DNA of 64,000 nucleotides from Escherichia coli (GTDB lineage: Bacteria > Pseudomonadota > Gammaproteobacteria > Enterobacterales > Enterobacteriaceae), in the NCBI RefSeq assembly GCF_003334385.1, contig NZ_QOWN01000002.1; one strand, written 5' to 3'. Shown here one piece after another: positions 14,118 to 32,065 of the stretch. The notes beneath the pieces are model-generated. The model searched no databases and was not told the DNA's origin. It saw only the letters and a list, made by a program, of their open reading frames with translations. Made by a program: the position numbers and the translations under genes. Each line of letters begins with the position of its first letter. Positions within the stretch are counted from its first letter, which is position 1.

Positions 14118-14487
14118 AAACCCGCCGGAACGGTTTATTACGTACATCAGGTAAAACTGACCGATAAGCCGCTTTCTTTTGGGTATAGTGTCGTGGACAG
14201 TCATTCATCTTTCTGCCCCTCCAAAAGTAAAAACCCGCCGAAGCGGGTTTTTACGTAAAACAGGTGAAACTGACCGATAAGCCGCTTTCTTTTGGGTATA
14301 GTGTCGTGGACAGTCATTCATCTTTCTGCCCCTCCAAAAGCAAAAACCCGCCGAAGCGGGTTTTTACGTAAACCAGGTGAAACTGACCGATAAGCCGCTT
14401 TCTTTTGGGTATAGCGTCGTGGACAGTCATTCATCTTTCTGCCCCTCCAAAAGCAAAAACCCGCCGAAGCGGGTTTTTACGTAAATC
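14118..14487. repeat. Three tandem 113-bp direct repeats in the rnpB 3' flank, each with a terminator-like hairpin
   Basis: The unit caggtgaaactgaccgataagccgctttcttttgggtatagtgtcgtggacagtcattcatctttctgcccctccaaaag-aaaaacccgccgaagcgggtttttacgtaaa recurs with a 113-bp period. Each copy shares about 45 nt with the 3' end of rnpB and carries the hairpin aaacccgc-cgaa-gcgggttt. A degenerate partial copy precedes them near 14118. Confidence 0.85.
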
Positions 14488-14864
<377 letters not shown>

Positions 14865-21609: not shown

Positions 21610-22073
21610 TGGATTTTCCACAAAGGGTTAATGGTTGGGCGCTATATGCTCATCCCTGTTTTCAGGAAACCTACGACGCTTTAGTTGCCGAAGTCGAGAC
21701 ATTAAAGGGAAAAGATCCTGAAAATTATCAGAGAAAAGCCGCCACAAAGTTATTGGCGGTAGTCCATAAAGTGATTGAGGAGCATATCACGGTCAATCCA
21801 TCATCACCGGCATTCCGTCATGGCAAGTCGTTAGGCTCTGGGAAAAATAAAGACTGGTCACGGGTAAAATTTGGTGCTGGTCGTTATCGTCTCTTCTTTC
21901 GTTATAGTGAAAAAGAGAAAGTCATCATTCTGGGATGGATGAACGATGAAAACACTCTGCGCACCTACGGTAAAAAAACAGATGCCTATACCGTATTCAG
22001 CAAAATGTTAAAAAGAGGACATCCTCCTGCCGACTGGGAAACCCTCACCCGAGAAACAGAAGAAACCCATTGA
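21609..22073 (+). CDS. yhaV: Toxin YhaV (ribosome-dependent mRNA endoribonuclease), 154 aa
   Basis: Track ORF translationally coupled to prlF; matches YhaV. Confidence 0.9.
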   Translation: MDFPQRVNGWALYAHPCFQETYDALVAEVETLKGKDPENYQRKAATKLLAVVHKVIEEHITVNPSSPAFRHGKSLGSGKNKDWSRVKFGAGRYRLFFRYSEKEKVIILGWMNDENTLRTYGKKTDAYTVFSKMLKRGHPPADWETLTRETEETH

Positions 22074-22127
22074 TGGTGTTCACAATGCCCGCCGAACGCA
22101 TTCGTGTTGACCAGCGGGCATCCTTTC

Positions 22128-22937
22128 TCACTCCCCGACCAGAATCACTTCAACCCCAGCCTTTCGCAGTCCTTCCAGGCTATCCGCAGGAATGCCTTCA
22201 TCAACAATGATCATGTCGATACGTTGAGTATCAATGATCTTATGTAAACTGGAACGATTGAACTTACTGGAATCGGTGACCACGATGATCCGTTCCGCAA
22301 CTTCGCACATCCGACGGTTTAAACGAGCTTCATCTTCATTATGTGTGCTGACGCCGCGCTCCAGATCGATCGCATCTACACCAAGAAACAGCATATCGAA
22401 GTGGTAATTTTGCAGCGATTGCTCAGCCTGATCGCCGTAAAAAGATTGCGACTGACGGCGCAAATGCCCGCCGGTCATCAGCAGCTCAACGCCTTCCGCT
22501 TCCAGCAACGCATTAGCCACGTTCATACCGTTGGTCATCGCAATTACGTCAGTGTGCTTGCGCATCAGACGAGCAATCTCAAAAGTGGTGGTCCCGGAAT
22601 CGAGGATAACCCGATGACCTGGCTGAATCAACTCAACGGCAGCTTTCGCAACGCTGCGTTTCATCGCGGTGTTCAGTGCGCTTTTATCTTCCACTGATGG
22701 CTCGACTGACGGCGTCGTGCTATCGCAGATCAACGCGCCACCATAGGCACGCACAGCGATCCCCTGCTTTTCCAGAAACGCCAGATCGTTGCGGATCGTC
22801 ACAGTAGATACGCCATACAATGCCGACAGATCGTTAACCTGCACACTCCCTTGCTGTCGCAGACGCTGAATGATCTGTTCTCGTCGCTCGCTGGTGCCAG
22901 TCACTCGCTTCTCACCTGAAGCGTCGGTATTACTCAT
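22128..22937 (-). CDS. agaR: DeoR-family repressor AgaR of the aga/kba regulon, 269 aa
   Basis: Track ORF; N-terminal helix-turn-helix and C-terminal sugar-phosphate binding domain, divergent from kbaZ. Confidence 0.92.
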
Positions 22938-23185
22938 AGTAAGTCCTTTCGTAAAACTTTCGTTTCATTTCGTTTTGCCTATTAACGCCTTTCTATTAAG
23001 CAAATGCAAGCCCACCTTGCCCATTGACGCAAGCTACTCTCGTTTCAGTGACTTTCATTATGTTTCTTTTGTGAATCAGATCAGAAAACTATTATCTTTC
23101 GTTTTATTTTTATCTCACCATGACGCAGTATCAACTGAAACAAAACGAAAGATTAATATCGCAGTAATCTGAACTGGAGAGGAAA
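22938..23185. promoter_or_regulatory. agaR/kbaZ divergent control region with an array of AgaR operator-like repeats
   Basis: Multiple CTTTCGTTT / AAACGAAAG-type motifs (cctttcgtaaaactttcgtttcatttcgttttgcc; atctttcgttttattttt; aaacaaaacgaaagatt). Confidence 0.6.
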
Positions 23186-24466
23186 GTGAAACATCTGACA
23201 GAAATGGTGAGAGAGCACAAAGCGGGCAAAACAAATGGAATTTATGCCGTTTGTTCCGCACATCCGCTGGTGCTGGAGGCTGCAATCCGCTACGCCAGTG
23301 CAAACCAAACGCCGTTACTGATTGAAGCAACCTCCAATCAGGTAGACCAGTTCGGCGGTTATACCGGAATGACGCCCGCCGATTTTCGCGGCTTTGTTTG
23401 TCAGCTCGCCGACTCGTTGAATTTCCCGCAGGATGCGTTGATTCTGGGTGGTGACCATCTGGGGCCAAACCGCTGGCAAAACCTGCCGGCCGCTCAGGCA
23501 ATGGCCAATGCCGATGATTTGATTAAAAGCTACGTTGCGGCAGGATTCAAAAAAATCCACCTTGATTGCAGCATGTCCTGTCAGGACGATCCGATTCCCT
23601 TAACTGATGACATCGTGGCTGAACGCGCCGCCCGTCTGGCGAAAGTGGCGGAAGAAACCTGTCTTGAACACTTTGGCGAAGCCGATCTGGAGTATGTCAT
23701 TGGTACCGAAGTGCCGGTACCTGGCGGCGCGCATGAAACCTTAAGCGAGCTGGCGGTCACCACGCCGGATGCCGCCCGCGCCACGCTGGAAGCCCATCGT
23801 CACGCCTTTGAAAAGCAAGGTTTGAATGCCATCTGGCCACGCATCATTGCCCTGGTGGTTCAACCCGGCGTCGAATTCGATCACACCAACGTTATTGATT
23901 ATCAGCCCGCCAAAGCGAGCGCCTTAAGCCAGATGGTCGAAAACTACGAAACGCTGATTTTCGAAGCGCACTCTACCGATTATCAAACGCCGCAATCGCT
24001 GCGCCAGCTGGTGATTGACCACTTTGCCATTCTGAAAGTTGGCCCAGCGCTGACCTTCGCCCTGCGTGAAGCTCTGTTCTCTCTGGCGGCGATTGAAGAA
24101 GAACTGGTGCCAGCGAAAGCCTGTTCTGGTCTGCGTCAGGTGCTGGAAGACGTGATGCTCGACCGCCCGGAATACTGGCAAAGCCACTACCACGGTGACG
24201 GCAACGCGCGTCGTCTGGCGCGTGGTTATAGCTACTCGGATCGCGTGCGCTATTACTGGCCGGACAGCCAGATTGATGACGCTTTCGCTCATCTGGTACG
24301 TAATCTGGCGGATTCACCAATTCCGCTGCCGCTGATCAGCCAGTATCTGCCGCTGCAGTACGTGAAAGTTCGCTCCGGCGAGCTGCAGCCAACGCCACGG
24401 GAACTCATTATCAACCATATTCAGGACATCCTGGCGCAGTACCACACAGCCTGTGAAGGCCAATAA
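23186..24466 (+). CDS. kbaZ: Tagatose-1,6-bisphosphate aldolase non-catalytic subunit KbaZ (AgaZ), 426 aa
   Basis: Track ORF with GTG start; first gene of the aga PTS operon. Confidence 0.92.
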
Positions 24467-24488
24467 GCAAAACAAAGAGGAACACGCT

Positions 24489-24962
24489 ATGCCAAATATT
24501 GTTTTAAGCCGGATTGATGAACGCTTGATTCACGGTCAGGTCGGCGTTCAATGGGTCGGATTTGCGGGGGCAAATCTGGTGCTGGTAGCCAACGATGAGG
24601 TTGCCGAAGATCCGGTACAACAAAACCTGATGGAAATGGTACTGGCAGAAGGGATCGCCGTACGTTTCTGGACGCTGCAAAAAGTTATCGACAACATTCA
24701 TCGCGCCGCCGATCGACAGAAAATCCTGCTGGTTTGTAAAACACCCGCCGATTTCCTGACGCTGGTGAAAGGTGGCGTTCCGGTGAATCGCATTAACGTT
24801 GGCAATATGCACTACGCCAATGGCAAACAACAAATCGCCAAAACGGTTTCTGTGGATGCGGGCGATATCGCAGCATTTAACGACCTGAAAACCGCTGGGG
24901 TGGAATGCTTCGTTCAGGGCGTCCCGACAGAGCCTGCTGTGGACCTCTTTAAATTACTTTGA
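24489..24962 (+). CDS. agaV: PTS EIIB, N-acetylgalactosamine-specific (AgaV), 157 aa
   Basis: Track ORF 24453..24962; start set at internal ATG after the RBS aagagga, giving MPNIVLSRIDERLIHGQ with the mannose-family EIIB phospho-His motif. Confidence 0.88.
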   Translation: MPNIVLSRIDERLIHGQVGVQWVGFAGANLVLVANDEVAEDPVQQNLMEMVLAEGIAVRFWTLQKVIDNIHRAADRQKILLVCKTPADFLTLVKGGVPVNRINVGNMHYANGKQQIAKTVSVDAGDIAAFNDLKTAGVECFVQGVPTEPAVDLFKLL

Positions 24963-24972
24963 GGGATTCATC

Positions 24973-25752
24973 ATGGAAATCAGCCTGTTGCAGGCATTTG
25001 CGTTGGGCATTATCGCCTTTATCGCTGGCCTGGATATGTTTAACGGCCTAACCCATATGCACCGCCCGGTGGTCCTCGGCCCGTTGGTCGGGCTGGTACT
25101 TGGCGATCTGCATACCGGAATTTTAACCGGCGGTACGCTGGAACTGGTGTGGATGGGGCTGGCCCCGCTGGCGGGCGCACAGCCGCCTAACGTGATTATC
25201 GGTACTATCGTCGGCACGGCGTTTGCCATTACTACTGGCGTGAAACCCGATGTCGCAGTAGGTGTCGCCGTACCTTTCGCTGTCGCAGTACAGATGGGGA
25301 TTACCTTCCTGTTCTCGGTGATGTCCGGCGTGATGTCTCGCTGCGACCGGATGGCGGAGAACGCCGATACTCGCGGCATTGAACGCGTGAACTATCTGGC
25401 ACTGCTGGCACTCGGCATTTTCTATTTTCTCTGCGCTTTCCTGCCTATCTACTTCGGCGCGGAACATGCAAAAACCATCATTGATGTCCTGCCGCAACGA
25501 TTAATCGACGGCCTCGGCGTCGCGGGCGGCATCATGCCAGCAATCGGTTTTGCCGTGCTGCTGAAAATCATGATGAAAAACGTCTACATCCCCTACTTCA
25601 TCCTGGGCTTTGTTGCCGCCGCCTGGCTCAAGTTACCAGTGCTGGCTATTGCTGCCGCTGCGCTGGCGATGGCGCTGATCGACTTGCTGCGTAAATCTCC
25701 TGAACCGACTCAACCTGCGGCACAGAAAGAGGAATTTGAAGATGGCATCTAA
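24973..25752 (+). CDS. agaW: PTS EIIC, N-acetylgalactosamine-specific (AgaW), full-length 259 aa
   Basis: Track ORF; mannose-family IIC membrane protein, paralogous to AgaC at 31262..32065. Confidence 0.88.
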   Translation: MEISLLQAFALGIIAFIAGLDMFNGLTHMHRPVVLGPLVGLVLGDLHTGILTGGTLELVWMGLAPLAGAQPPNVIIGTIVGTAFAITTGVKPDVAVGVAVPFAVAVQMGITFLFSVMSGVMSRCDRMAENADTRGIERVNYLALLALGIFYFLCAFLPIYFGAEHAKTIIDVLPQRLIDGLGVAGGIMPAIGFAVLLKIMMKNVYIPYFILGFVAAAWLKLPVLAIAAAALAMALIDLLRKSPEPTQPAAQKEEFEDGI

Positions 25753-26620
25753 TCAAACCACCCTGCCGAACGTCAGTGAAAACGAAGAAACATTGCTGAC
25801 TGGCGTCAATGAAAACGTGTATGAAGATCAGAGCATTGGCGCGGAGCTGACGAAAAAAGATATCAACCGCGTCGCCTGGCGTTCCATGCTGTTACAAGCG
25901 TCTTTTAACTACGAACGTATGCAGGCTTCTGGCTGGTTGTACGGTCTGCTGCCTGCTCTGAAAAAGATCCACACTAATAAACGCGACCTGGCGCGCGCCA
26001 TGAAGGGGCATATAGGTTTCTTCAATACCCATCCGTTTCTGGTGACGTTTGTTATCGGCATTATCCTTGCGATGGAGCGTTCTAAGCAGGACGTTAACAG
26101 TATTCAGAGCACCAAAATTGCCGTCGGTGCGCCGCTTGGCGGGATTGGCGATGCAATGTTCTGGCTAACGCTACTGCCGATTTGTGGCGGGATTGGAGCC
26201 AGTCTGGCATTGCAAGGCTCCATTCTTGGCGCAGTCGTCTTTATTGTGCTGTTCAACGTGGTACACCTGGGGCTGCGTTTTGGTCTGGCGCATTATGCTT
26301 ACCGCATGGGCGTGGCGGCGATTCCACTGATTAAAGCGAATACCAAAAAAGTCGGCCATGCTGCGTCTATCGTTGGGATGACGGTAATCGGTGCGCTGGT
26401 GGCAACCTATGTTCGTTTAAGCACCACGCTGGAAATCACGGCGGGCGACGCAGTGGTTAAGTTACAGGCTGATGTTATCGACAAACTGATGCCGGCCTTC
26501 TTACCGTTGGTCTACACCCTGACCATGTTTTGGTTGGTACGCCGCGGCTGGAGTCCGCTGCGTCTGATTGCAGTTACCGTGGTTCTCGGCATCGTCGGTA
26601 AATTCTGCCATTTCCTTTAA
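25736..26620 (+). CDS. agaE: PTS EIID, N-acetylgalactosamine-specific (AgaE), ~292-294 aa
   Basis: Track ORF; mannose-family IID, paralogous to AgaD; overlaps the agaW 3' end. Confidence 0.88.
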   Translation: MKMASNQTTLPNVSENEETLLTGVNENVYEDQSIGAELTKKDINRVAWRSMLLQASFNYERMQASGWLYGLLPALKKIHTNKRDLARAMKGHIGFFNTHPFLVTFVIGIILAMERSKQDVNSIQSTKIAVGAPLGGIGDAMFWLTLLPICGGIGASLALQGSILGAVVFIVLFNVVHLGLRFGLAHYAYRMGVAAIPLIKANTKKVGHAASIVGMTVIGALVATYVRLSTTLEITAGDAVVKLQADVIDKLMPAFLPLVYTLTMFWLVRRGWSPLRLIAVTVVLGIVGKFCHFL

Positions 26621-26637
26621 ATACAATGAGGTATTAG

Positions 26638-27072
26638 ATGTTAAGTATTATTTTGACAGGGCATGGCGGGTTTGCCAGCGGCATGGAAAAAGCAATGAAG
26701 CAAATTCTCGGTGAGCAATCGCAGTTTATCGCCATCGATTTTCCGGAAACCTCAAGCACCGCGCTGCTTACATCGCAGCTTGAAGAGGCCATCGCCCAAC
26801 TGGATTGTGAAGACGGCATTGTTTTTCTGACGGATTTGCTGGGCGGCACGCCGTTTCGCGTAGCTTCAACGCTGGCGATGCAAAAACCGGGCTGTGAAGT
26901 GATCACCGGCACCAATTTGCAACTGCTACTGGAGATGGTGCTGGAGCGCGAAGGGTTAAGCGGTGAAGAATTCCGTGTACAGGCGCTGGAGTGTGGACAC
27001 CGAGGGCTGACCAGTCTGGTGGACGAGTTAGGCCGCTGCCATGAAGAATGTCCGGTCGAGGAAGGAATATGA
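26638..27072 (+). CDS. agaF: PTS EIIA, mannose family (AgaF), 144 aa
   Basis: Track ORF; EIIA-Man fold N-terminus MLSIILTGHGGFASG. Confidence 0.88.
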   Translation: MLSIILTGHGGFASGMEKAMKQILGEQSQFIAIDFPETSSTALLTSQLEEAIAQLDCEDGIVFLTDLLGGTPFRVASTLAMQKPGCEVITGTNLQLLLEMVLEREGLSGEEFRVQALECGHRGLTSLVDELGRCHEECPVEEGI

Positions 27073-28202
27073 CACACGTTCTGCGCGCCAGAAGGCTGCT
27101 GACTGAAGAGGGATGGCTCGATGACCATCAGTTGCGTATTGCTGACGGTGTCATCGCAGCAATCGAACCGATTCCAGCGGGCGTGACTGAACGCGATGCG
27201 GAACTGCTCTGCCCTGCTTACATCGACACCCATGTACACGGTGGTGCGGGCGTTGATGTAATGGATGACGCGCCGGATGTACTCGACAAGCTGGCAATGC
27301 ACAAGGCACGCGAAGGTGTCGGCAGTTGGTTACCGACCACCGTAACCACGCCGCTTAATACCATTCATGCGGCGCTGAAACGTATTGCTCAACGTTGCCA
27401 ACGCGGCGGACCTGGTGCGCAAGTGCTGGGGAGTTATCTCGAAGGACCGTACTTCACGCCGCAGAATAAAGGCGCGCATCCGCCGGAGTTGTTTCGCGAG
27501 CTTGAAATTGCCGAGCTGGATCAGTTGATTGCCGTTTCTCAGCACACCTTACGTGTGGTAGCGCTGGCACCGGAAAAAGAAGGGGCATTGCAGGCCATCC
27601 GCCATCTTAAACAGCAAAACGTAAGGGTGATGCTGGGGCATAGCGCGGCGACCTGGCAACAAACCCGCGCCGCATTTGATGCTGGTGCCGACGGCCTGGT
27701 GCATTGCTATAACGGGATGACAGGTTTACATCACCGCGAACCGGGAATGGTTGGCGCGGGATTAACGGACAAGCGCGCCTGGCTGGAACTGATAGCCGAT
27801 GGTCATCATGTGCATCCGGCGGCAATGTCGCTGTGTTGTTGCTGTGCGAAAGAGAGAATCGTACTGATCACCGACGCGATGCAGGCAGCTGGGATGCCGG
27901 ATGGTCGCTATACGTTATGTGGTGAAGAAGTGCAGATGCACGGTGGCGTTGTCCGTACCGCGTCTGGTGGGCTGGCGGGCAGTACGCTGTCTGTTGATGC
28001 GGCAGTGCGCAATATGGTCGAGTTGACGGGCGTAACGCCTGCGGAAGCCATCCATATGGCGTCGCTGCATCCGGCGCGAATGCTGGGTGTTGATGGTGTT
28101 CTGGGATCGCTTAAACCGGGCAAACGCGCCAGCGTCGTTGCGCTGGATAGCGGGCTACATGTGCAACAAATCTGGATTCAGGGTCAATTAGCTTCGTTTT
28201 GA
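27069..28202 (+). CDS. agaA: N-acetylgalactosamine-6-phosphate deacetylase AgaA, full-length 377 aa
   Basis: Track ORF 27048..28202; start set at ATG after the RBS gaagga (MTHVLRARRLL); NagA-like amidohydrolase. Overlaps the agaF stop. Confidence 0.88.
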   Translation: MTHVLRARRLLTEEGWLDDHQLRIADGVIAAIEPIPAGVTERDAELLCPAYIDTHVHGGAGVDVMDDAPDVLDKLAMHKAREGVGSWLPTTVTTPLNTIHAALKRIAQRCQRGGPGAQVLGSYLEGPYFTPQNKGAHPPELFRELEIAELDQLIAVSQHTLRVVALAPEKEGALQAIRHLKQQNVRVMLGHSAATWQQTRAAFDAGADGLVHCYNGMTGLHHREPGMVGAGLTDKRAWLELIADGHHVHPAAMSLCCCCAKERIVLITDAMQAAGMPDGRYTLCGEEVQMHGGVVRTASGGLAGSTLSVDAAVRNMVELTGVTPAEAIHMASLHPARMLGVDGVLGSLKPGKRASVVALDSGLHVQQIWIQGQLASF

Positions 28203-28204
28203 TA

Positions 28205-28375
28205 GTTTGCTCCTTTATTGGGCCTTCACTTCCCCCGTAAGGCCTTTCTTTTTCTTTCGTTTTGATCTGTGCAGCGGTGTCGGATGCGACGCTAACGCGT
28301 CTTATCCGACCTACAGTTGGTGACCGCAAGGCCGGATAAAGCGTTTGCGCCGCATCCAGCAATCCCTTTTGCTTC
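28205..28375. repeat. REP/BIME cluster between agaA and agaS
   Basis: REP-like palindromic units gtcggatgcgacgctaacgcgtcttatccgacctac and ggccggataaagcgtttgcgccgcatccagc. Coordinates approximate. Confidence 0.7.
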
Positions 28376-28552
28376 CTTTATCTTTTCTTTCAACGATCAC
28401 AAATTTCGTTTTATTTCTTTTTTCTCCATTGAACTTTCAGTTTCTTTTCTATAGATTTTAATCAACGAAAGACATCACCAAGTGAAATGAAACGAAAGGC
28501 AAGTGAAAGCGACAACGCCCGACGTCAAGTTCATCAGACTAAGGATTGAGTT
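28376..28552 (+). promoter_or_regulatory. agaS promoter region with AgaR operator-like repeats
   Basis: Dense CTTTC / GAAAG repeats (tctttcaacgatcacaaatttcgttttatttc...gaaatgaaacgaaaggcaagtgaaagcg) of the same family as the agaR/kbaZ region. Confidence 0.55.
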
Positions 28553-29707
28553 ATGCCAGAAAATTACACCCCTGCTGCCGCCGCAACCGGTACATGGACT
28601 GAAGAAGAGATCCGCCATCAGCCTCGCGCATGGATCCGTTCACTCACCAACATCGACGCGCTACGTTCCGCGCTCAATAACTTCCTTGAACCGTTACTGC
28701 GCAAAGAGAATCTGCGGATCATCCTGACCGGAGCCGGAACGTCGGCATTTATCGGTGACATCATCGCGCCGTGGCTCGCCAGCCATACCGGTAAAAACTT
28801 CAGCGCCGTACCGACCACCGATCTGGTCACCAATCCGATGGACTACCTGAACCCAGCTCATCCGCTGCTGTTGATCTCCTTCGGTCGATCCGGCAACAGC
28901 CCGGAAAGCGTCGCAGCCGTGGAACTGGCAAATCAATTTGTACCGGAATGCTATCACCTGCCGATCACCTGCAACGAAGCGGGCGCTCTTTACCAAAACG
29001 CGATCAACAGCGATAACGCGTTTGCCCTGCTGATGCCCGCAGAAACGCACGATCGCGGCTTTGCGATGACCAGCAGCATTACCACCATGATGGCCAGCTG
29101 CCTCGCGGTTTTCGCACCTGAGACGATCAACAGCCAAACCTTCCGCGACGTGGCGGATCGTTGCCAGGCGATCCTGACCTCACTGGGCGATTTCAGCGAA
29201 GGTGTGTTTGGTTACGCACCGTGGAAACGGATCGTTTATCTCGGTAGCGGTGGCTTACAGGGCGCAGCACGCGAGTCGGCGCTGAAAGTGCTGGAACTGA
29301 CGGCGGGTAAACTGGCGGCCTTTTATGATTCTCCAACCGGATTCCGTCATGGACCAAAATCGCTGGTCGATGACGAAACGCTGGTGGTGGTATTTGTCTC
29401 CAGCCACCCTTACACCCGTCAGTATGATCTTGATCTGCTGGCTGAACTTCGCCGTGACAACCAGGCAATGCGTGTAATCGCCATCGCCGCGGAAAGCAGC
29501 GACATCGTCGCTGCCGGTCCACATATCATCCTGCCACCGTCACGTCACTTTATCGACGTTGAGCAGGCATTTTGCTTCCTGATGTACGCCCAGACGTTTG
29601 CACTGATGCAGTCGCTGCACATGGGCAATACGCCGGATACCCCATCAGCCAGTGGCACCGTTAACCGCGTGGTGCAAGGCGTAATCATTCATCCGTGGCA
29701 GGCATAA
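28553..29707 (+). CDS. agaS: Galactosamine-6-phosphate deaminase/isomerase AgaS (SIS domains), 384 aa
   Basis: Track ORF; tandem SIS-domain protein at the conserved position. Confidence 0.92.
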   Translation: MPENYTPAAAATGTWTEEEIRHQPRAWIRSLTNIDALRSALNNFLEPLLRKENLRIILTGAGTSAFIGDIIAPWLASHTGKNFSAVPTTDLVTNPMDYLNPAHPLLLISFGRSGNSPESVAAVELANQFVPECYHLPITCNEAGALYQNAINSDNAFALLMPAETHDRGFAMTSSITTMMASCLAVFAPETINSQTFRDVADRCQAILTSLGDFSEGVFGYAPWKRIVYLGSGGLQGAARESALKVLELTAGKLAAFYDSPTGFRHGPKSLVDDETLVVVFVSSHPYTRQYDLDLLAELRRDNQAMRVIAIAAESSDIVAAGPHIILPPSRHFIDVEQAFCFLMYAQTFALMQSLHMGNTPDTPSASGTVNRVVQGVIIHPWQA

Positions 29708-31261: not shown

Positions 31262-32065
31262 ATGCATGAAATAACCCTACTTCAGGGATTATCCCTGGCG
31301 GCGTTAGTTTTTGTTCTGGGGATTGATTTTTGGCTGGAAGCCTTATTTTTATTCCGCCCGATAATCGTTTGTACCCTAACTGGCGCTATTCTCGGTGATA
31401 TTCAGACTGGCTTAATTACCGGTGGTCTGACAGAGTTGGCTTTCGCCGGATTAACCCCTGCAGGTGGTGTTCAGCCGCCCAACCCGATTATGGCGGGTCT
31501 GATGACCACCGTCATTGCATGGTCTACGGGCGTTGATGCCAAAACAGCAATTGGTCTTGGCCTGCCGTTTAGTTTGTTAATGCAGTACGTCATTCTGTTC
31601 TTCTATTCCGCTTTCTCATTATTTATGACCAAAGCCGATAAATGCGCGAAAGAGGCGGATACGGCAGCGTTTTCCCGGCTTAACTGGACAACGATGCTCA
31701 TCGTCGCTTCAGCGTATGCGGTGATTGCTTTCCTCTGTACTTACCTGGCACAGGGGGCGATGCAGGCGCTGGTGAAAGCGATGCCCGCCTGGCTGACCCA
31801 CGGCTTTGAAGTGGCTGGCGGTATTCTGCCTGCCGTTGGTTTTGGCTTGCTGCTGCGCGTAATGTTCAAAGCGCAATATATCCCTTACCTGATCGCCGGT
31901 TTCCTGTTTGTTTGCTACATCCAGGTCAGCAACCTGTTGCCGGTTGCCGTACTGGGCGCAGGCTTTGCGGTGTATGAGTTTTTCAATGCGAAATCCCGGC
32001 AGCAAGCGCAACCGCAGCCCGTTGCCAGTAAAAATGAAGAAGAGGACTACAGCAATGGGATCTGA
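31262..32065 (+). CDS. agaC: PTS EIIC, galactosamine-specific (AgaC), 267 aa
   Basis: Track ORF; mannose-family IIC. Confidence 0.92.
   Translation: MHEITLLQGLSLAALVFVLGIDFWLEALFLFRPIIVCTLTGAILGDIQTGLITGGLTELAFAGLTPAGGVQPPNPIMAGLMTTVIAWSTGVDAKTAIGLGLPFSLLMQYVILFFYSAFSLFMTKADKCAKEADTAAFSRLNWTTMLIVASAYAVIAFLCTYLAQGAMQALVKAMPAWLTHGFEVAGGILPAVGFGLLLRVMFKAQYIPYLIAGFLFVCYIQVSNLLPVAVLGAGFAVYEFFNAKSRQQAQPQPVASKNEEEDYSNGI

Follow-up and report, generated by a model that had tools for sequence, protein, structure and literature searches.

Among repressors of the DeoR family in E. coli, the GlpR and DeoR systems offer the general precedent for the control regions considered here: as is generally known, an oligomeric repressor occupies several operators per control region in a cooperative fashion, some of them overlapping the promoter and others lying at a distance, and the operators of DeoR and GlpR are palindromic. 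The closest described system is the N-acetylgalactosamine/galactosamine (aga/gam) regulon of E. coli K-12, in which AgaR reportedly binds the promoters of agaR, kbaZ (also called agaZ) and agaS, in work attributed to Ray and Larson in 2004; a comparative reconstruction of the aga/gam regulon is said to have been made by Leyn et al. in 2012. Ray and Larson reportedly gave TTTCRTTTYRTTTY as the AgaR consensus, a string for which a full-text literature search found no match. AgaR has been described as an autoregulator and a directly binding repressor of agaZ and agaS (PMC4694137) and as a tetramer (PMC10991401); it represses both operons, deletion of agaR de-represses both (PMC10101011), and agaA and agaS become constitutive in the deletion strain (PMC3668189). 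Guharajan et al. listed CTTTCGTTTCATTTTCGTTT, written as CTTTCGTTTCATTT(T)CGTTT, as the "AgaR binding sequence from PkbaZ" (PMC8667592, Table S3, 2021), and the isolated 20-bp PkbaZ site, which corresponds to the operator that we call R1, conferred AgaR-dependent repression on a synthetic promoter (Guharajan et al., PMC8667592).

The window, as we term the entire 64-kb stretch of E. coli DNA that was analyzed, carries an intact chromosomal aga/gam cluster, as judged from gene order and annotation, and its bases 22000-29000 are up to 100% identical to thousands of complete E. coli genomes. The annotated order in a matching strain is prlF-yhaV, agaR (-), kbaZ-agaV-agaW-agaE-agaF-agaA, agaS-kbaY-agaBCDI (+), agaA being named "nagA" in the pipeline annotation of that strain. 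A first-pass annotation of the sequence had placed agaR divergent from kbaZ and agaS at the head of agaS-kbaY-agaBCDI, and these gene identities agree with the annotation; the two intervals in which it had described CTTTC/GAAAG repeats correspond to the agaR-kbaZ divergent region and to the promoter-proximal half of the agaA-agaS spacer, the full intergenic lengths being 248 bp and 350 bp, respectively. The gene adjoining the operator sites encodes the cognate repressor, with a DeoR-type helix-turn-helix (HTH_DeoR PF08220, 3e-21) and a DeoRC sensor domain (PF00455, 5e-55), and its product scores 465 bits against the NCBIfam AgaR equivalog NF040755 (cutoff 260).

Comparison with K-12 MG1655 leaves little room between the two loci: the agaR-kbaZ region is identical at 247 of 248 positions and the agaA-agaS spacer at 350 of 350, and the sole difference, at 23090, lies outside any operator. 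The window thus shares its locus, its repressor and all three promoter regions with the K-12 system that is associated with Ray and Larson (2004) and with Leyn et al. (2012), 1 nt in approximately 600 being different, whereas K-12 carries an agaW-agaA deletion and the strain of the window has complete agaW, agaE, agaF and agaA genes. Window bases 22957-22976 read CTTTCGTTTCATTTCGTTTT, which is the published PkbaZ site save for one extra T in the machine-read table. The repeats are therefore very probably the AgaR operator arrays of the E. coli aga/gam regulon; because of the K-12 match, the published binding and repression by AgaR and the equivalog assignment, we take this interpretation to be correct and the operator system to be one that is already known, a textbook case of local regulation. 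The explanation draws on the enrichment, the consensus, the conserved positions and orientations, the K-12 match and the repressor family, all observed in this analysis, and on the literature for AgaR binding at the three promoter regions, the tetramer and the inducibility of the kbaZ and agaS promoters (PZ and PS).

Direct counting of the repeats in 22938-23185 gave five CTTTC and one GAAAG, together with five TTTCRTTT 8-mers, at 22958, 22963, 22968 and 23097 on the + strand and at 23143 on the - strand. Upstream of agaS (28376-28552) there are two CTTTC, three GAAAG and three TTTCRTTT, and the whole 350-bp agaA-agaS spacer holds seven CTTTC/GAAAG and four TTTCRTTT. Such motifs could be a by-product of T-rich or AT-rich intergenic composition with no sequence-specific role, given that both regions are AT-rich (GC 0.36 for agaR-kbaZ and 0.34-0.43 on the agaS side) and that the position weight matrix (PWM) derived from the sites is itself T-rich. 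The null model, 2000 dinucleotide-preserving shuffles of each intergenic region itself, kept this AT-richness, but the shuffles never reached the observed TTTCRTTT counts: five against a mean of 0.13 at agaR-kbaZ and four against a mean of 0.24 at agaA-agaS, with 0 of 2000 shuffles attaining either figure. For CTTTC, six were observed against a mean of 1.08 in the first region (1/2000 shuffles) and seven against 1.87 in the second (2/2000). Nine of the 14 TTTCRTTT matches in the window, and all five exact copies of CTTTCGTTT, fall within the two aga regulatory regions, which make up only some 600 bases, and these regions are the top two 250-bp bins of the window for both motifs. The arrays that had been proposed at agaR/kbaZ and upstream of agaS are accordingly real and far above the expectation from local composition, and the density withstands the comparison with random AT-rich intergenic DNA that had been suggested as a check.

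Conservation was examined in 80 loci with AgaR orthologues from other Enterobacterales, ranging from Escherichia to Yersinia, Serratia, Pantoea and Mixta and amounting to 1.5 Mb. agaR and kbaZ are divergent in all of these loci, and the spacer between them measures 245-251 bp in 72 of 74 species. Alignment of the agaR-kbaZ region from 25 species and of the agaS upstream region from 19 species revealed in each case sharply conserved blocks amid DNA that diverges freely. Seven of these blocks share one common 20-nt pattern, nCTTTCGTTTYRTTTCnnTT (consensus CTTTCGTTTYRTTTC), which is built from two 10-bp direct repeats in tandem and has a sub-period of 5 bp, the self-similarity of the PWM peaking at shifts of 10 and 5; in this the AgaR operator departs from the palindromic operators of DeoR and GlpR. 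Whole operators are present in both orientations. A PWM built from the agaR-kbaZ sites alone returned the agaS sites as the next best among 128,000 window positions, at 25.3 and 24.9 bits, whereas background matches in the window reached at most about 12 bits (12-15 across PWMs), and the reverse cross-validation, with a PWM built from the agaS-region sites, likewise recovered the agaR-kbaZ sites as the next best in 64 kb. The features of both regions are collected in Table 1.

Table 1. Features of the agaR-kbaZ and agaA-agaS control regions, in window coordinates
Feature	Position	Strand	Sequence	Remarks
agaR, DeoR-family repressor gene	22128..22937	-		Annotated agaR in matching genomes
agaR Shine-Dalgarno	22944..22948	-	AAGGA	From sequence; "TCCTTT" conserved beside agaR start in 25 species
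Operator R1	22956..22975	+	ACTTTCGTTTCATTTCGTTT	Best PWM match in window, 28 bits; about -231 from kbaZ start in nearly all of 74 species
Conserved block	22978..23012		CTATTAAC..CCTTTCT..AATGCAAGCC	Invariant columns in 25-species alignment
Operator Z0	23051..23070	+	ACTTTCATTATGTTTCTTTT	PWM 26 bits; -135 +/- 1 in 71/74 species
CRP-like site	23070..23085	+	TGTGAATCAGATCAGA	One mismatch to TGTGA-N6-TCACA; putative function
Operator Z1	23095..23114	+	TCTTTCGTTTTATTTTTATC	PWM 25-26 bits; -91 +/- 1 in 70/74 species
Candidate PZ -10 hexamer	23126..23131	+	CAGTAT	CA..AT invariant in 25 species
Operator Z2 (inverted)	23133..23152	-	TCTTTCGTTTTGTTTCAGTT	PWM 27 bits; -53 +/- 1 in 71/74 species
kbaZ (= agaZ)	start 23186	+		Divergent from agaR
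Putative terminator stem of kbaZ-agaVWEFA	28220..28245	+	GGGCCUU..AAGGCCU	After agaA stop; RNA fold
Operator-like site T1	28243..28262	+	CCTTTCTTTTTCTTTCGTTT	Also T-tract of putative agaA terminator; upstream of REP pair
Inverted REP unit pair (BIME)	28279..28357			Palindromic arms I7 and I2
Operator S1	28402..28421	+	AATTTCGTTTTATTTCTTTT	PWM 25-28 bits, including PWM trained only on PZ region; about -152 from agaS ATG across species
Putative PS -35 hexamer	28429..28434	+	TTGAAC	TTGA invariant in 19 species
Operator S2	28433..28452	+	ACTTTCAGTTTCTTTTCTAT	Within promoter spacer; about -122; PWM only 14-21 bits in E. coli, against 22-26 bits in most other species
Putative PS -10 hexamer	28452..28457	+	TAGATT	TA.ATT invariant in 19 species
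Operator S3 (inverted)	28480..28499	-	CCTTTCGTTTCATTTCACTT	PWM 25-27 bits; about -75 in nearly all species
agaS	28553..29707	+		First gene of agaS-kbaY-agaBCDI; annotation

The arrangement of the sites is conserved no less than their sequence. The four-site architecture at -231, -135, -91 and -53 (the last on the - strand) from the kbaZ start is found in 67 of 74 species, and a three-site architecture at about -152, -122 and -75 (again with the last on the - strand) from the agaS ATG occurs in most of the 58 other species examined for PS. With the additional site T1, considered below, counted in the second array, both have the same layout of three forward sites and one inverted, gene-proximal site, the start-to-start spacings in E. 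coli being 95, 44 and 38 nt in the first and 159, 31 and 47 nt in the second. Across the 1.5 Mb, which includes many AT-rich intergenic regions, 504 of the 510 PWM matches above 20 bits lie within aga regulatory DNA. From genus to genus the sites are invariant in sequence, position and orientation, although the DNA between them diverges; this invariance and the near absence of scores above 20 bits elsewhere bear on composition in the same sense as the shuffles: together they refute it as the origin of the motifs, and we attach negligible probability to it.

The only matches above 20 bits outside aga control DNA are CTTTCGTTTT-type motifs upstream of a second DeoR-family regulator gene that lies just downstream of agaR in several Citrobacter genomes (L008:10850-11130; also L014, L019, L028, L031 and L039). 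Related proteins may read similar sites, and DNA with T-tracts at a 5- and 10-bp phasing should be bent, so that the repeats might conceivably serve mainly a paralogous DeoR-type repressor or a T-tract-binding nucleoid protein, or act as curved DNA or UP-like elements. We consider a main binder other than AgaR, or a structural role of this kind, very improbable: in 74 species the motif accompanies agaR orthologues and keeps its positions, the literature records that AgaR binds these promoters directly and that strains lacking agaR show constitutive expression, and an isolated 20-bp site suffices for AgaR-dependent repression of a synthetic promoter (PMC8667592). The assignment of the arrays to AgaR, a DeoR-type repressor, which had been proposed from the letters alone, is supported by the K-12 identity, the published PkbaZ site, the AgaR equivalog and the conservation, and the accompanying suggestion of cooperative binding at multiple operators would fit the reported tetramer (PMC10991401).

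In the agaR-kbaZ region, the first-pass annotation had counted at least five motifs in both orientations. Five 8-mers are indeed present, on both strands, but they do not represent five sites: the three overlapping copies at 22958-22975 constitute the single operator R1, the remaining two belong to Z1 and Z2, and a further operator, Z0, has no exact TTTCRTTT match, so that the independent sites are only four conserved operators. Two other candidates were rejected: the CTTTC at 22946, which arises as the complementary strand of the agaR Shine-Dalgarno sequence and coincides with no high-scoring PWM site, and CTCTCGTTTC at 23037, which is missing from genera other than Escherichia. Downstream of Z0, the CRP-like site has the form TGTGA-N6-TCAGA, of which the TGTGA and ..ATC.. 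columns are conserved in the 25-species alignment. The pattern is consistent with a PZ that combines a weak -10 hexamer with a CRP site centered near -60/-61, in which case Z1 would overlap the -35 region and Z2 would span the transcription start; class I CRP-dependent promoters have the site near -61.5, and PZ was reportedly found to be CRP dependent by Ray and Larson in 2004. A generic promoter scan called neither PZ nor PS, each reaching at most 8 of 12 against a threshold of 9 of 12.

The position of the agaR promoter is ambiguous, with two or three candidates on the - strand. One uncertain candidate lies within the conserved block between R1 and Z0, at 22979-23008 (- strand TTGCAT, 18 nt, TAATAG); the block as a whole (TATTAA, CCTTTCT, AATGCAAG) has no AgaR-operator score and no convincing sigma-70 -10 hexamer, and may represent either the promoter of agaR or the binding site of a different factor. 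The generic scan reported two promoter-like sites on the - strand, 23134-23106 and 23118-23091, as alternative candidates. A minor-sigma SELEX paper that mentions the agaR/kbaZ spacer gives no start sites for it, and PMC9628945 contains no detail on AgaR binding sites.

Upstream of agaS, the hexamers TTGAAC and TAGATT are separated by 17 nt and would form PS. By this assignment S1 abuts the -35 hexamer and S3 lies downstream of the start, at about +16 to +35. As in the first region, two sequences resembling operators were rejected for being absent outside Escherichia, namely AACGAAAGA at 28464 (28464-28472, with GAAAG at 28467) and GTGAAAG at 28501 (28501-28511, with GAAAG at 28505). An independent promoter for agaS-kbaY-agaBCDI had been put forward, and it is supported by a conserved terminator-like hairpin after agaA, by the invariant hexamers at the putative -35 and -10 positions and by published Ps-lacZ fusions (cited in PMC3668189). 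Citrobacter sp. NCU1 (L017) provides a natural control: agaS there begins 58 bp after agaA, with no sites upstream of agaS, and the two operons appear to be fused. The absence of operators from an agaS placed so close to agaA supports a separate agaS promoter in the other loci. In Escherichia albertii (L003), approximately 2.9 kb separate agaA from agaS, the PS operators score poorly, and something appears to have been inserted.

We suggest that, in the absence of inducer, tetrameric AgaR would bind cooperatively to R1, Z0, Z1 and Z2 in the first control region and to S1, S2 and S3 in the second. R1 lies next to the agaR start, Z0 upstream of the CRP-like site, Z1 presumably over the -35 region of kbaZ and inverted Z2 over its start, whereas S1-S3 would bracket and fill the agaS promoter, S2 sitting in the spacer and inverted S3 beyond the start. 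AgaR bound in this manner would occlude RNA polymerase at the promoters of kbaZ-agaVWEFA and agaS-kbaY-agaBCDI and would also limit its own synthesis, and growth on N-acetylgalactosamine or galactosamine would relieve the repression. The -35, -10 and +1 assignments, the role of CRP and the pairing of operators by the tetramer are those that we infer. The findings have little significance beyond annotation, in that they confirm a textbook repressor system and map its operators at the base level, but regulon databases and synthetic circuits based on AgaR could profit from the coordinates, the cross-validated operator model and the four-site architecture. A possible role of the terminator tail T1 in the repression of agaS is the one point that goes beyond the known system.

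The DNA between agaA and the agaS array contains, between the putative terminator and the next promoter, two imperfect palindromes of approximately 35 bp in inverted orientation. The REP cluster that had been noted here is thus real, as two inverted units, but it does not testify to an independent agaS promoter, as had been argued; a REP pair is weak evidence for a separate promoter because REPs occur inside operons as well. In common with the known REP/BIME elements of E. coli, the units are extragenic imperfect palindromes of about 35 bp with dozens of copies per genome: the sequence has a match in all 5426 E. coli genomes, in at least 40 places per record in 4164 records, and the window contains another copy at 59837. 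What distinguishes this pair is that it was inserted into a control region that is conserved apart from it, where it moved T1 and S1 apart, from about 102 to 159 nt. The insertion is specific to Escherichia, no such pair being present at the agaA-agaS position in other genera.

The hairpin that follows the agaA stop folds into a 9-bp stem (-10.2 kcal/mol; z = -0.55), which is not exceptional on its own, and a simple terminator scan with a loop limit of 8 nt did not call it. Per-species folds anchored on the T-rich tail nevertheless placed a GC-rich hairpin, of differing stem sequence, directly before the same tail in 15 genera. An exact 11-bp direct repeat, TTCGTTTTGAT, flanks the hairpin, with copies at 28193-28203 and 28256-28266, 63 bp apart, one of them overlapping the stop codon of agaA and the other falling within T1. 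The 3' end of agaA in Escherichia is unlike that in other genera, which have a CTTTCATTnTG site right after the stop, and this difference and the direct repeat may reflect a local rearrangement.

The T-tract T1 is an eighth strong operator-like site, outside the intervals of the first-pass annotation. With PWMs that it did not help to build, it scores 22-24 bits, whereas the background in the window does not exceed 12-15. Most species carry a site of this class, which as a rule precedes S1 by 101-103 nt, and in several genera another lies about 46 nt farther out than T1; in E. coli the distance from T1 to S1 is 159 nt, stretched by the REP pair. Because T1 comes directly after a conserved hairpin, it might be merely the U-tract of the agaA terminator, its likeness to an operator being due to chance and AgaR making no use of it, and the distance to S1, which by lineage is 47, 62, 66, 101-103, 152 or 159 nt, keeps no constant helical phase. 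Yet the score with independent matrices is some 8-10 bits above any background match, and other terminators in the 1.5 Mb fall below it. Moreover, the C residues that interrupt the tract in its pattern CTTTC-TTTTY-CTTTC persist from Yersinia to Klebsiella despite the changes in the hairpin stems. On this evidence a tail that serves termination only is a possibility to be taken seriously, at somewhat short of even chances, and T1 is probably, if by no wide assurance, a distal AgaR operator; it may already lie within published footprints.

Were T1 such an operator, the T-tract would double as a conserved distal operator, and an AgaR tetramer could loop the end of the first operon to the agaS promoter, the REP pair in Escherichia being inserted inside that loop. 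We advance looping tentatively and think it rather unlikely; a simple version of it is weakened by the T1-S1 distance of 47-66 nt in other lineages, given that helical phase is not strictly kept.

Two observations concern other parts of the window. The agaC reading frame is intact (267 amino acids, 31262-32065), whereas in strain DA33133, otherwise identical, agaC is split by an IS1 insertion (L001:15263-16843, outside the matched stretch). The - strand carries the RNase P RNA gene rnpB (Rfam RF00010, 319 bits) at 14488-14864, and after it a 113-bp unit is repeated in tandem 3.5 times (14118-14510). Each copy ends in a terminator-like hairpin, and we take the array to be the repeat that has long been known to lie downstream of the gene for M1 RNA.
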